From positions 257,245-321,244 of the forward strand of contig JBBPIQ010000001.1 in the NCBI GenBank assembly GCA_038040345.1: a stretch of DNA of 64,000 nucleotides. The letters run 5' to 3'. Position 1 is the first letter of the stretch, and each line of letters opens with the position of its first letter. Both the position numbers and the translations under genes were made by a program. The notes under the pieces are model-generated. The model searched no databases and was not told the DNA's origin. It saw only the letters and a program-made list of their open reading frames with translations. Source of the stretch: Chloroflexota bacterium (GTDB taxonomy: Bacteria; Chloroflexota; Limnocylindria; P2-11E). This document shows positions 5,799 through 23,581 of the stretch, one piece after another.

Positions 5799-5839
5799 CG
5801 CCCGGAGGGGATTCGAACCCCTGACCTCTTCCTTGAAAG
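5799..5839 (-). other. Orphan 3' half of tRNA-Glu (T-arm through anticodon loop): att-site-like direct repeat of the 3' end of the intact tRNA-Glu at 21124-21197
   Basis: A roughly 40-nt identical stretch gcccggaggggattcgaacccctgacctcttccttgaaag is shared with 21125-21165. Sequence 5' of the anticodon loop diverges completely. Confidence 0.75.
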
Positions 5840-5974: not shown

Positions 5975-6595
5975 CTACACGCCGTCGACAGCCGGGCCGG
6001 GGCGAGCAGGCGCGCTCAGGCGATTCGACTGAAGAGCCGCGAGTATGTGCACGGCCGACGCGATGTCACTCGCGTCCTCGGACATGTGCGACCAGATGAT
6101 GGTGCCGTCGATATCGATGATCATCGCGCCGCCGAGCTGGGCGAAGTCACCGATCGTGCGGCCCTGAAACACGCCGTGTTTCGCGATGGCCATGACGCCC
6201 TTGGCGACGACGAGGGGCCCAAGCAGCTCGTCCATGGTTGCGACCTTCGCGCCTGCTGCCTTATAGGTCAGGCGCTCTGCGTCGGCGAGCACGGGCAGGT
6301 CGATCCCTTGGGTGCGGCGGAAATGCGCTGCGTGAGGCGGCGTGGCCTGGCCGATCAGGACCAGGCGCGCGCCTGCCTCCGCAAAGCTGGCGCGGTCACG
6401 GTGCAACTGCACCGCATGTGCACGGCAGAACGTTCAGCCGTAGTGGCGCAGCCAGACCAGCACCGCAGGGCGGTCGCGCCAGAGATCTCCAAGTCGCACC
6501 ACGCGTCCCTCGTGGTCTGGCAGCGTGATATCGACGAGCTCATCGGCACGCCGCGGTGGCGACGCGTGCTGACGTTCCGTCGCGGTGCCAAACAC
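5975..6595 (-). CDS. TlpA/AhpC-TSA (Prx-like) thiol:disulfide oxidoreductase; candidate selenoprotein with in-frame TGA (6434-6436) giving a UxxC motif (…VLVWLRHYG-U-TFCRAHA…)
   Basis: A single reading frame runs from GTG 6595 through TGA to the stop at 5975. The region around the TGA matches the TlpA-family FWASWCxPCR redox motif, with Sec in place of the first Cys. Downstream is a thioredoxin-fold region (DLPVLADAERL, IIDIDGTIIW). Hairpin 6397-6416. Confidence 0.6.
6397..6416 (-). promoter_or_regulatory. SECIS-like hairpin (mRNA UGCGGUGC-AGUU-GCACCGUG) 18-37 nt downstream of the in-frame UGA of the Prx-like gene
   Basis: 8-bp stem (with G-U pairs) and a GU-containing tetraloop, seen directly. 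Confidence 0.4.
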
Positions 6596-6605
6596 GATGC
6601 GACGC

Positions 6606-6998
6606 CTACCTCGCCGCGGTGGTCGCAGATTCGACCGGGCGCCCAGCTGCGACCCACGCCTTGAACCCGCCGTCGAGGTGAGCAACGTTCGTGTAGCCCA
6701 TGTCCGTGAGCGCGGCGGCCGCAAGCGCCGAGCGTCCCCCGGTCGCGCAGTGAAGGATGATGCGGCGCTCCGGCTCGAAGCCCTCCTGGTGGTACGGGCT
6801 CGTCGGATCGGCGCGGAACTCGAGCATGCCGCGTGGCACGTTGACCGAACCCGCGATGCGTCCCGACTCGGCGAGCTCAGCTGGTTCACGCAGATCGACG
6901 AGCAGCACGCCCGCAGCGCGCTCCTTGTCGACCCCAGCAACATCGAGGTTCTCGATCTTCGCCTTCGCCTCGGCGACCAACTCAACAGCCTTCTTCAT
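6606..6998 (-). CDS. Single-domain rhodanese (sulfurtransferase), Cys-containing active site HCATGGRS
   Basis: CxxGxR active-site loop. GGAG Shine-Dalgarno sequence 7 nt upstream of ATG 6998. Stop is 10 nt before the Prx-like start. Confidence 0.8.
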   Translation of the reverse strand: MKKAVELVAEAKAKIENLDVAGVDKERAAGVLLVDLREPAELAESGRIAGSVNVPRGMLEFRADPTSPYHQEGFEPERRIILHCATGGRSALAAAALTDMGYTNVAHLDGGFKAWVAAGRPVESATTAAR

Positions 6999-8675: not shown

Positions 8676-9221
8676 TTACGTTCGCCGGACCTCGGTCGTA
8701 TGCGCCACACGGTTGTCCATCGCCCAGATCGCGGGGCAACGCTCGTCCGCAAGTCGCTTCACCCGCGCGACCTCGTCCTCCGACGCGTCGGTCGCGACAT
8801 CGAGCTCGAACGCGAACGCATTGAGTGGGGGCACCTCGGCGACGCCGAGCGCGGGACGAAAGTCGACCTGGAGGCGAAGGCGTGCGCGCAGGCTCTTGAT
8901 CTTCATGCCGACCATCGCCGCCTGCATCGCATATGTCGACGCGTAGCAGGAGAGGGCACCCCAGAAGCAGTAGATGAGGGGGGACGGAGCGCGACCGTCT
9001 CCGCTCAGGAACGCAGGGAAGTCGGCCTCGAAAGTCGTCTCGCCCCTTGCGTACTTCACCGTTCCGCCGAACTGCGCCTTGGTCTCGTCGGTGCGCCAGT
9101 CGCCGACGAGATCCACACTCAACTGGGCCGCGCTTGGATCGGCCTTCGCCTTCTCCGCGGTCGCCCGCGCGTTGTCGACTCGCACGTTGTGCAGCGTCGC
9201 CATCGTCCCGTCCCTCATCAC
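8676..9221 (-). CDS. OsmC/Ohr family peroxiredoxin-like protein (Cys-containing)
   Basis: Conserved OsmC cysteines (LIYCFWGALSCY, ERCPA). Start uncertain (the alternative MATLHN start was not adopted). Confidence 0.75.
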   Translation of the reverse strand: MMRDGTMATLHNVRVDNARATAEKAKADPSAAQLSVDLVGDWRTDETKAQFGGTVKYARGETTFEADFPAFLSGDGRAPSPLIYCFWGALSCYASTYAMQAAMVGMKIKSLRARLRLQVDFRPALGVAEVPPLNAFAFELDVATDASEDEVARVKRLADERCPAIWAMDNRVAHTTEVRRT

Positions 9222-9441: not shown

Positions 9442-10230
9442 TCAAGCTGGTTTGCGCGCGTAAACGGTCACGCCGCGCGTCTCGAAGTCCTTGGCGTCAC
9501 TTTCGTGCTTGCTGCCGGCGAACACGTCGACCTCATTAGACATAACGATGTCCGTGAAGCCGGTCTGTTCGAGGAGCACGCGCCACTCTGCATCCAGCAG
9601 AGCCCCGGCAATTCAGCCGCTCCAGAGCGCGATGTCGTCCTTCGCATCCTGAGGAACTTCTTTATGCACGAGGATGTCTCCGATCTGGATCCGCCCGGTG
9701 GGCTTGAGGACACGGAGCATTTCGCCGAACACCGCGCGCTTATCGGGGCACAGGTTGACCACCCCGTTGCTGATGATGACGTCCGCGAAGCCGTCATCGA
9801 CGGGCAGCACTTCCGCGAAGCCTTCGCGGACGTCGACGTTGGAGAGTCCCATCTCGCGTGCGCCTTCTTGCGTCCTCTCCCGCATCTCCGCCGTCATATC
9901 GACGGCGACGACCCGACCGCTCGGCCCGACCTGCTGCGCGGCGATCAGGGTGTCAACGCCCGCGCCGCAGCCGACGTCGACCACGCGTTCGCCCGCGCTA
10001 AGATCGCCGAACAAGAAGGGGTTCCCCGTGCCGGCGAATGACGCGAGGTTTGTCGCCGGAACGCGGTCGATGAGTTCGCTGGGGTAGCCGAGCATTAGGG
10101 CCAAGGGTCGACCGGTGTGAAAGTGGAATCCGAGTTCGGGGTTGGTGGCGACTTCGCTGTACTTCTCGGAGATGAACCGACGAAGCTCATCGCGATCGAT
10201 CCGCGCCACTCCGATCTGTTGCGCAGTCAC
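9442..10230 (-). CDS. ArsM-like class I SAM-dependent methyltransferase; candidate selenoprotein with in-frame TGA (9613-9615) at the conserved catalytic Cys position (…DIALWSG-U-IAGALL…)
   Basis: SAM motif VVDVGCGAG. The conserved ArsM C-terminal domain (IAGALLDAEWRVLLEQTGFTDIV…GVTVYARKP) continues in frame for 56 codons after the TGA to the stop at 9442. Hairpin 9586-9602, exactly 11 nt after the UGA. Confidence 0.6.
9586..9602 (-). promoter_or_regulatory. SECIS-like 17-nt hairpin (mRNA CUCUGC-UGGAU-GCAGAG) starting 11 nt downstream of the in-frame UGA of the ArsM-like gene
   Basis: Perfect 6-bp stem (7 with a G-U pair) and a 5-nt loop. The spacing matches the canonical bacterial SECIS. 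Confidence 0.45.
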
Positions 10231-20909: not shown

Positions 20910-21123
20910 GTCGTGTCACCTCCTCGAACTACGGCCGCGGACCCCTTCTGGATCCGCGCTACTTGCGACAGACAAACATACTTTGCGGAGATCCGAGCGG
21001 ACCACACAACTGACGGGCTGAAGGTGGAGTTCAGGGCGCGAGCCGCTTGGGAGCCATACATCGAAGCGGTCCTGGCGACGCAAGGGGAGGGCCCCAAAGA
21101 TCTCACGCCTGTTATCACATCGG

Positions 21124-21197
21124 TAGCCCGGAGGGGATTCGAACCCCTGACCTCTTCCTTGAAAGGGAAGCGCCCTGGACCACTAGGCGACCGGGCC
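21124..21197 (-). tRNA. tRNA-Glu (anticodon TTC)
   Basis: Manual fold: acceptor GGCCCGG/CCGGGCT, D-arm GCCT…GGGC, anticodon stem CTTCC/GGAAG with loop CTTTCAA, T-arm AGGGG-TTCGAAT-CCCCT, discriminator A. Confidence 0.85.
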
Positions 21198-22414: not shown

Positions 22415-23581
22415 CTAGAGGATTCCGAGCACCTTCCGGGCGATCGTCCGGAGAGACGCCATGCTGTCGGGGGCGAGATCACGACGCGCGTGGCGCTCGA
22501 GCGCGCGGATCGCGCGTTCGGCGTGCAGGTCATCGTCGAGCCCGCCGAGGACGTCCTGGGTCGAGGCGTCGCGTTCGATAGGACCGAGTCTTCCGCGCCC
22601 GAGTGACTCAGCGAGCGCCGCCGCGCGCTTCCGCGCGCGTTCCAAGCGTTCCTCGTCGTGGTCGAACGGCCGGCGGTAATGGACGTCGAGCAGGTACAGG
22701 CGGAGCGCCTGCGGCGATGTGTTCTTGAGCACGTCGCGGACGAAGGTCATGTTGCCGTCCGACTTCGACATCTTCGCTCCGTCGAGTCGCATCGGCGCCA
22801 CGTGCACCCAGTGGCCGACGAATCGTTTCCGCAAACCATGCGCGGCCTCGCTTTGCGCGATCTCGCACTCGTGATGCGGGTAGATCAGATCGCTGCCACC
22901 GCCGTGAATGTCGATCGGAAACCCAAGATGCCGGTCGGACATCGCCGAACACTCGAGGTGCCATCCCGGGCGGCCGCGGCCGAACGGACTTGGCCACGTC
23001 GGCCCTTCACTCACGCGGCGCCAGAGGGCGAAGTCGATGGGTGAACGCCGGCTGGGATCGTCGAGCCGCGCGTCGTCCTGCGACGCCAGGATCCGCTTCA
23101 TCTTCGCCTTCGAGAAACGCGAGAGCTGGCCGAACCGGGGGAACTTCTTGACATCAAAATAAAGGCCCCCGGGAGTCTCGTACGCGAATCCGCGGCGGCG
23201 TAGGCGCTCCGCCAGCTTGATCATCGCGGGGATCTCTCGCGTGGCGTGCGGGATCGCGTCGGGCTTGCGCCAGTCAAGGCCTTTCATGTCCCGCAGGAAG
23301 GCGCGCTCCTCGCGGCGCCCCAGCGCTCGCCAGCTCACCTTGTCCCGCGCGGCGCGCTGCAGGATCGACTCGTCGATGTCGGTGATGTTCTGCGCGTACC
23401 GCAGGCTCTGTCCGCGCACTTCGAGGAGACGCGCGAGCACGTCGAAGACGAGAAAGGTGCGGGCGTGGCCGAGGTGGGTGGTGTCGTAGGGCGTAACGCC
23501 GCAGACGTACATCGTCGCGACACGGGATCGAGGCTGGAACGCAAAGGTGCCGCGCCGTCGCGTGTCGTAAAGCCATAGCAC
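22415..23581 (-). CDS. Class I aminoacyl-tRNA-synthetase-like cysteine ligase (CysS/MshC family, short form without an anticodon-binding domain)
   Basis: HIGH-type motif TTHLGHARTF, KMSKS motif and zinc-binding Cys residues. 388 aa, shorter than canonical CysRS, so MshC-like. Confidence 0.8.
   Translation of the reverse strand: MLWLYDTRRRGTFAFQPRSRVATMYVCGVTPYDTTHLGHARTFLVFDVLARLLEVRGQSLRYAQNITDIDESILQRAARDKVSWRALGRREERAFLRDMKGLDWRKPDAIPHATREIPAMIKLAERLRRRGFAYETPGGLYFDVKKFPRFGQLSRFSKAKMKRILASQDDARLDDPSRRSPIDFALWRRVSEGPTWPSPFGRGRPGWHLECSAMSDRHLGFPIDIHGGGSDLIYPHHECEIAQSEAAHGLRKRFVGHWVHVAPMRLDGAKMSKSDGNMTFVRDVLKNTSPQALRLYLLDVHYRRPFDHDEERLERARKRAAALAESLGRGRLGPIERDASTQDVLGGLDDDLHAERAIRALERHARRDLAPDSMASLRTIARKVLGIL

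Follow-up and report, generated by a model that had tools for sequence, protein, structure and literature searches.

The question raised by this locus is whether an in-frame TGA at the redox-active site of a thioredoxin-fold protein ends translation or encodes selenocysteine (Sec). The locus lies at positions 5975-6595, on the minus strand, of a 64,000-nucleotide stretch of a Chloroflexota bacterium contig (JBBPIQ010000001.1), referred to here as the window. Reading from a GTG start codon at 6593-6595 to a TAG stop at 5977-5975 gives a single frame of 206 codons in which there is only one internal stop, the TGA at 6434-6436, which is codon 54. A preliminary description of the stretch, made from its letters alone, had already read the GTG, the TGA and the end of the gene as one continuous frame, and both that frame and the translation given around the TGA hold on the sequence: ...PAVLVWLRHYG*TFCRAHAVQLHR..., that is, ...AVLVWLRHYG*TFCRAHAVQL.... 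The encoded protein begins VFGTATERQHASPPRRADE..., and its first residues (VFGTATERQ) align with the N-termini of full-length homologs (MLGTA.../VLGIA...). The TGA, with a TGC at 6425-6427 encoding Cys57, forms a redox motif HYG-U-xx-C of the CxxC type (U54-T-F-C57). We consider it highly probable that 5975-6595 is a well-supported selenoprotein gene, which all of the public gene calls examined cut in two; it is referred to below as the peroxiredoxin (Prx)-like gene.

Searches of protein collections returned two classes of match: full-length proteins of approximately 190-200 residues (55-66% identity) and shorter proteins of 130-145 residues (65-95% identity) that begin just past the TGA and are gene calls cut by it. 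Cysteine occupies the aligned column in all full-length homologs examined (YGCxxC; for example, HYGCTFCRAHAVQL in homolog P0045). This C54 is invariant in alignments A2, A6 and A7 of the full-length homologs, with the window TGA falling in the same column, and the column of the resolving cysteine, C57, is invariant in all three as well. The full-length homologs therefore carry the motif rather than ending before it, which removes one objection that the preliminary description had raised against its own proposal. The split gene calls are found in JGI, ENA, Logan and NCBI records, several of which also hold a separate 53-residue N-terminal call, and the public records label members of the Sec form only as truncated 'peroxiredoxin' or 'AhpC/TSA family' fragments.

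The same pairing is seen at the nucleotide level, where the codon at the homologous position is TGA in 31 loci from independent assemblies (28 distinct sequences; Sec forms) and TGC or TGT in 14 (Cys forms); a scan of genome contigs with one protein returned 7 loci. The Sec forms read, for instance, WLRHYG*TYCRAHAVQLHR in locus L001 and WLRHYG*TFCRAHAVQLHR in locus L006, and the two residues that follow the TGA vary among them (TF, TY, LY, IF, IL, VH, LH, TH and IY), indicating diverged orthologs and not copies of one sequence. Coding constraint is present on both sides of the TGA: among the 28 Sec forms, pairwise differences at codon positions 1/2/3 are 0.148/0.157/0.456 over the 37 codons before it and 0.208/0.168/0.444 over the 37 codons after it, and no in-frame stop occurs upstream of the TGA in any of the 28. 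This pattern indicates that the segment from GTG to TGA is translated in the same frame as the remainder of the gene, and the suggestion that it might be non-coding in relatives is not borne out.

Within the coding sequence, across the codons for H-AVQLHR-D, the transcript can form the hairpin UGCGGUGC-AGUU-GCACCGUG (6416-6397), which spans the 18th to the 37th nucleotide after the UGA and has an 8-bp stem, an AGUU loop at 6408-6405 and a distance of 25 nt from UGA to loop. The published model of the bacterial Sec insertion sequence (SECIS) element, bSECIS, specifies an apical loop of 3-9 nt, an upper stem of 4-16 bp, 16-37 nt between UGA and loop, a minimum free energy (MFE) of -7.5 kcal/mol or lower, and a G, followed by G or U, within the first two positions of the loop (PMC13188914). 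The window hairpin falls within every one of these limits, with its 4-nt loop A-G-U-U, 8 bp, 25 nt and, for the hairpin alone, -12.1 kcal/mol. Its position is that given in the preliminary description, and covariation among the homologs now supports it. In the alignment of Sec forms the helix (columns 21-28 with 33-40) is paired in 98.7% of cells; compensatory changes on both sides are present at 4 of the 8 pairs (21 cells); none of 500 shuffles matches the hairpin on any of five measures; and sliding the 3' arm by 1-3 columns reduces pairing to 13-50%. Pair 25-36 is AU in 11 Sec forms, GC in 10, GU in 4 and CG in 1, and pair 27-34 is GC in 19, CG in 7, GU in 1 and UA in 1. RNAalifold independently predicts the same helix.

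The apex of the hairpin, CAG-TTG, is invariant in nucleotide sequence in all 28 Sec forms, with TTG being a rare leucine codon at this GC content, and the flanking codons covary as GTG...CAC, ATG...CAT, GTC...GAC, ATC...GAT, GTT...AAC and CTG...CAG. The same columns of the Cys alignment are indistinguishable from shuffles (69.6% paired, with 41 of 500 shuffles as good); 6 of the 14 Cys forms lack the pair that closes the loop, and the leucine codon is TTG in only two of the 14, the other 12 having mostly CTC or CTG. Taken together, these comparisons provide strong evidence for a predicted SECIS-type element at 6397-6416.

A rough neighbor-joining tree places the Sec forms in one large clade in which some Cys forms are nested, with clades made up solely of Cys forms outside it. 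One nested Cys form, protein P0024 (loci L098/L099; GCA_035517255.1, 3001-3570), has a true TGC among Sec-form neighbors and keeps both the complete hairpin and the TTG codon; it looks like a recent reversion from Sec to Cys that retains a fossil SECIS element. Three further Cys forms, L027, L028 and L033, have lost the pairing of the hairpin and represent later stages of decay. Dynamic exchange between Sec and Cys has been described for bacteria (PMC1794560), and the nested reversions seen here match that description.

Profile scoring across the joined translation, a check proposed in the preliminary description, was performed with Cys substituted for Sec at the TGA. Two Pfam families span the TGA with scores above their gathering cutoffs, AhpC-TSA (residues 18-120, 48.5 bits, cutoff 26) and Redoxin (residues 18-144, 31.7 bits, cutoff 26.6), and AhpC-TSA_2 (PF13911) matches residues 63-173 (53.3 bits, cutoff 27). 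The sole NCBIfam match is NF040769, "SelL-related redox protein", at 133.5 bits against a curated cutoff of 120 (E 5.9e-39), covering positions 3-172 of the 173 in the profile. As a proxy for the window protein, we built an AlphaFold2 model of the Cys homolog P0003, which is 66% identical (predicted local distance difference test score, pLDDT, 93.9; predicted TM-score, pTM, 0.91). This model has strands at residues 24-27, 32-34 and 44-48, and its helix alpha-1 (residues 55-66) carries the CxxC motif at the N-terminal end; all of these elements lie upstream of the point at which the truncated gene calls start (V/MQLHR...). Neither half of the gene could therefore fold alone, as had been proposed from the sequence. 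The nearest solved structure by sequence is human prostamide/prostaglandin F synthase, PRXL2B (9us9; E 1.2e-9, residues 30-189), whose CxxC aligns to the UxxC, and the nearest by fold in a Foldseek search with the P0003 model is also human PRXL2B (9usa; E 5.6e-11, TM-scores 0.67/0.79), followed by the BCP/PrxQ peroxiredoxins and then by ResA at ranks 13-15 and below (E about 2e-8).

The window protein thus meets the description of a member of the thioredoxin-fold/AhpC-TSA superfamily, with its motif at the N-terminus of helix alpha-1 in the modeled homolog. Within that superfamily it belongs to the PRXL2/SelL-related group, and nothing tested excludes membership of NF040769. The earlier proposal of a thiol oxidoreductase with a UxxC redox motif and a thioredoxin/Prx-type fold stands; the TlpA/ResA identity attached to it does not, as the motif is G-U-T-F-C with no WCxxC, the N-terminus VFGTATERQHASPPRRADELVD is without a hydrophobic segment and no TlpA model of NCBIfam matches. 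We also rejected a typical peroxiredoxin, in which a Thr or Ser stands three residues before the Cys or Sec (PxxxTxxC/U), since H-Y-G precedes U here, and Selenoprotein L proper (UxxU), since the second position is the TGC at 6427-6425 and is Cys in every Sec-form locus.

The explanation that best fits these observations, and one in which we have high confidence, is that the UGA encodes Sec as the first residue of a CxxC-type motif under the direction of the SECIS element. The gene product would be a 206-residue cytoplasmic oxidoreductase of thioredoxin fold from the PRXL2/SelL-related branch of the peroxiredoxin-like superfamily. On arrival of the ribosome, the 8-bp/AGUU hairpin, 17 nt downstream of the UGA at 6436-6434, would recruit SelB with Sec-tRNA(Sec), and Sec would be inserted at the UGA in place of termination. 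In the folded protein, U54 at the N-terminus of helix alpha-1 would attack an oxidized substrate, which may be a disulfide, a peroxide or endoperoxide, or a sulfenic acid; C57 would resolve the intermediate to give a selenenylsulfide, and a cellular thiol system would then reduce this again.

The window holds a second gene with an in-frame TGA, approximately 3 kb from the Prx-like gene. This gene, predicted to encode an ArsM-like S-adenosylmethionine methyltransferase (9442-10230, minus strand), consists of an open reading frame (10230-9613) that ends ...DDIALWSG-TGA, the TGA being at 9615-9613, and continues in frame as IAGALLDAEWRVLLEQTGF...ARKPA to a TGA at 9444-9442, giving the motif LWSG-U-IAG. 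The best NCBIfam matches of the protein are arsenite-methyltransferase models, including selenoprotein-specific ones, all of them below cutoff, and the U-I-A-G of the motif fits the UxxG given for the ArsM selenoprotein in PMC13188914. The database contains many ArsM-like calls of 203-205 residues whose end is the TGA itself (78-98% identical), together with full-length proteins of 63-72% identity; Cys stands at the TGA position in 8 of the 9 full-length homologs aligned. One database homolog, P0244, has Trp in this column (LWSGWIAG), most likely because a gene caller using an alternative code rendered TGA as Trp. Locus L006 repeats the arrangement exactly, with its own Prx-like Sec gene immediately downstream, and there, as in the window (at approximately 9584-9604), the ArsM-like UGA is followed by a 7-8-bp hairpin with a UGGAU loop. 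Folding z-scores from single sequences were uninformative across the hairpin regions examined, with -0.70 as the third value beside the two for the Prx-like hairpin given below. The occurrence of two independent genes with Sec signatures in one genome is indirect evidence that UGA is decoded as Sec.

Several results weigh against Sec insertion directed by this hairpin. No selA, selB, selD or tRNA-Sec was found in the 64-kb window with ARAGORN, Rfam or Pfam (the last on about 45 open reading frames), none of the four is present in any of the fetched loci, and no tRNA-Sec was found in the flanks of the 23 related loci scanned for tRNAs. Rfam likewise found no RNA family near the gene. Folded as a single sequence, the Prx-like hairpin is no better than shuffles (z = -0.24 and -0.59); z-scores of this kind are uninformative in GC-rich coding sequence, and comparative covariation was therefore used. 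The genomic context of the family is not conserved. Upstream, the Prx-like gene follows the stop of a rhodanese-domain gene (6606-6998, minus strand; 130 residues, start ATG at 6998, Pfam Rhodanese 2.6e-21, Cys in its active site), and the 10-nt gap reported previously is present (TAG at 6608-6606, then GTG), which makes co-transcription of the two plausible; a weak terminator-like stem with a T-run at 6617-6599 (minus strand) overlaps the rhodanese stop and the Prx-like start and slightly weakens this claim, and is probably not significant, with one such match found against 0.7 expected. The ability of the organism to make and insert Sec, and the presence of Sec in this protein, are predictions that draw their support from sequence comparison.

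These points have to be set beside four other accounts of the locus. The TGA could be a true stop, with the locus being either a pseudogene or two small genes, for a 53-residue peptide and a 145-residue AhpC-TSA_2 fragment from a GTG at 6412. The gene callers behind the JGI, ENA, Logan and NCBI records all divide it in this way, and the 145-residue piece alone still matches Pfam AhpC-TSA_2; that piece, however, is without the three core strands and the entire redox motif, the TGA aligns exactly to the catalytic Cys, and 28 distinct sequences with both flanks constrained would not all have kept a nonsense mutation at one codon. The covarying hairpin, moreover, is preserved only in forms that have the TGA. 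We judge a true stop very improbable on these grounds. An error of sequencing or assembly at 6435, with TGC or TGT as the true codon and the TGA one base away from either, is vanishingly unlikely: four independent metagenome assemblies of one strain (L094-L097) agree on the TGA, which excludes a misread base, and it is present too in the 95%-identical relative L005 and in at least 20 diverged loci.

The UGA might instead be read as an amino acid other than Sec, with Trp, Cys or Gly supplied by a near-cognate or suppressor tRNA, or the code might have been reassigned. The failure to find Sec machinery in the sequence examined would fit such a reading, as would the Trp of the ArsM-like homolog P0244, although the latter is probably an artefact of gene calling. 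Against this, TGA is the stop codon of many other well-supported window genes, which is consistent with the standard genetic code and excludes reassignment; the site is that of the nucleophilic Cys of CxxC, a residue whose replacement by Trp or Gly would abolish activity; the downstream element fits the SelB-type SECIS model in both geometry and loop sequence; and both TGA genes come from families in which Sec forms are already known. Decoding as another residue accordingly appears very improbable to us. It could also be argued that the hairpin is a mere by-product, with no RNA function, of a conserved AVQLHR in GC-rich DNA: the stem lies entirely within conserved codons, Cys forms with the same residues pair in part (69.6% overall; 7 of 8 pairs in L007), and the MFE z-scores are unremarkable. 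Yet covariation links the synonymous third position of the Val/Ile/Met codon to the first position of the H/D/N/Y/Q codon, and the synonymous third position of the latter to the first position of the V/M/I/L codon; the TTG found throughout the Sec forms and in two Cys forms is also that of the recent revertant L098/L099. Neither the covariation nor the TTG pattern is required by conservation of the amino acids, and we find a by-product of protein conservation highly unlikely. A UGA that encodes Sec under the direction of a SECIS-type hairpin remains the explanation that we prefer.

On the minus strand, the gene order around the locus is ArsM-like(U), OsmC-like, HD_5+LuxR regulator, rhodanese and Prx-like(U). 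This order recurs only in the same strain (L094-L097) and in the 95% relative L005, with L006 sharing the ArsM-like gene only, and at least 20 other Sec-form loci have unrelated neighbors; loci L001-L004, for example, have it between a polysaccharide deacetylase gene and rpoC. A conserved rhodanese/ArsM/Prx operon was accordingly rejected, as a tblastn search of 45 loci with the window neighbors matched the near-identical strain, L005 and, for ArsM alone, L006, and no other locus. The link to rhodanese is local to near relatives and is not a property of the family. The rhodanese weakly matches the '(seleno)protein' model NF041203 (36.5 bits) and the OsmC-like protein (8676-9221, minus strand) the '(seleno)protein' model NF041052 (59.5 bits), both below cutoff and both with Cys here. 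Each of the four small redox genes in this cluster is from a family with Sec forms elsewhere.

Downstream of the Prx-like gene, positions 5800-5839 (minus strand) are an exact 40-nt copy of the 3' part of the tRNA-Glu(UUC) gene at 21122-21197 (minus strand), running from the anticodon loop to the acceptor end; the copy and the intact gene share an orientation and are 15.3 kb apart, and no chance match is expected. This tRNA-like sequence was considered as selC and rejected, being a copy of the tRNA-Glu 3' end. Islands that integrate at a tRNA gene usually leave such a copy of its 3' end. The interval bounded by the two tRNA-Glu sequences contains both Sec genes, the rhodanese and OsmC genes, the HD/LuxR regulator, an adenylate cyclase, a cupredoxin and a heavy-metal P-type ATPase. 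The interval has no recognized integrase open reading frame and is not set apart from its surroundings by GC content, so that an active mobile element is unsupported. In three Cys-form loci a tRNA-Met is found downstream of the Prx-like gene (L007, 10681-10754; L009, 10589-10663; L033, 5115-5188), within approximately 100 nt of it in L007 and L009, and the window has its tRNA-Glu fragment at the equivalent place; loci of the Prx-like family seem repeatedly to adjoin tRNA genes.

With regard to distribution, the nearest named relatives of a CysS/MshC-like ligase encoded in the window (22418-23530, minus strand) are from a 'Chloroflexi bacterium' (88%) and a 'Candidatus Limnocylindria bacterium' (87%), and the named carriers of the Sec form are metagenome-assembled genomes of Solirubrobacteraceae (Actinomycetota). 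The ligase gene lies outside the putative island, and its relatives led us to discard Solirubrobacterales, suggested by the named homologs, in favor of a soil bacterium of the class Limnocylindria as the probable source of the window. On this comparison, the Sec-form family would span at least two phyla or have been transferred between them. Assembled genomes with the Sec form include GCA_036719265.1, GCA_003244205.1 and GCA_051003075.1. For Thermoleophilia, Solirubrobacterales and Conexibacter, the literature library that was searched yielded no paper on selenoproteins. An aa3-type cytochrome oxidase cluster, also present in the window, suggests an aerobe, and soil lineages with aa3-type oxidase genes appear to join the organisms that apparently use Sec. 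A wider reading, which we offer tentatively and think unlikely to hold in full, is that the Sec form of the PRXL2/SelL-related group makes up a large clade, as yet unannotated, among aerobic soil bacteria from two phyla or more (Solirubrobacteraceae and, here, a probable Limnocylindria-class Chloroflexota), with an unusually rigid SECIS element (invariant CAGUUG apex). In the window genome the gene lies with a Sec-containing ArsM-like gene in the 15-kb interval between tRNA-Glu and the 40-nt copy of its 3' end, and on this reading selenoprotein genes would move horizontally within a redox/metalloid-defence cassette. Aerobic bacteria rarely retain selenoproteins (PMC13188914), and this reading, if true, would qualify that view.

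The practical consequence concerns annotation. Dozens of Prx-like orthologs are split or truncated at the TGA in all public gene calls examined, as is the ArsM-like gene, and re-annotating both TGA genes would give back their catalytic residue to two families of proteins frequently encountered in soil metagenomes. The dataset is also a clean natural experiment on SECIS constraint, in which the same codons hold protein and RNA information, and reversions from Sec to Cys are captured at differing stages of SECIS decay, intact in L099 and degraded in L027, L028 and L033.

Comparison with known systems places the window protein close to several described groups. Like NF040769 and PRX_like2 (PF13911), it is of similar length and has a CxxC-type motif at the N-terminus of helix alpha-1. 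Its closest structural relative, human PRXL2B (9us9, 9usa), is a eukaryotic Cys enzyme of approximately 20-22% identity, and a soil bacterium would not be expected to use prostaglandins as substrate. TlpA/ResA proteins have WCxxC and an N-terminal membrane anchor or signal peptide, and are extracytoplasmic; the window protein has the superfamily fold in common with them and lacks both WCxxC and the anchor or signal. SelL of fish, invertebrates and marine bacteria resembles the window protein in its Prx-like fold and in having its redox motif at the CxxC position. It reportedly contains, in the description of 2007, two Sec residues (UxxU, forming a diselenide), whereas the second position of the window protein is an invariant Cys and the expected intermediate would be a selenenylsulfide. 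SelL has itself been called 'a Prx-like protein' (PMC2398784), and its kinship with the present family is expressed in the name of NF040769.

The nearest precedent is the set of UxxC Prx-like selenoproteins of Zhang and Gladyshev, described since 2005 (PMC1088965, PMC2398784, PMC13188914), which appear as Prx-like 1, 2 and 3 in Table 2 of PMC2398784 and as 'Prx-like thiol:disulfide oxidoreductase, UxxC/UxxU' in PMC13188914. These share with the window protein the Prx-like fold, the UxxC motif, the existence of Cys homologs and a SECIS element in the coding sequence just past the UGA. They differ in that the published groups were defined by pfam00578, pfam04592 or pfam08534 and are mostly marine, whereas soil metagenomes are the source of the clade described here; in the 2026 table (PMC13188914), the cd02970/AhpC-TSA entry has UxxS, in contrast to the UxxC of the window protein. 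Among the selenoprotein families of bacteria that were defined computationally, those of the UxxC Prx-like type rank with the oldest and most abundant, and the window gene adds a member to this known class rather than a new mechanism or a new kind of selenoprotein.

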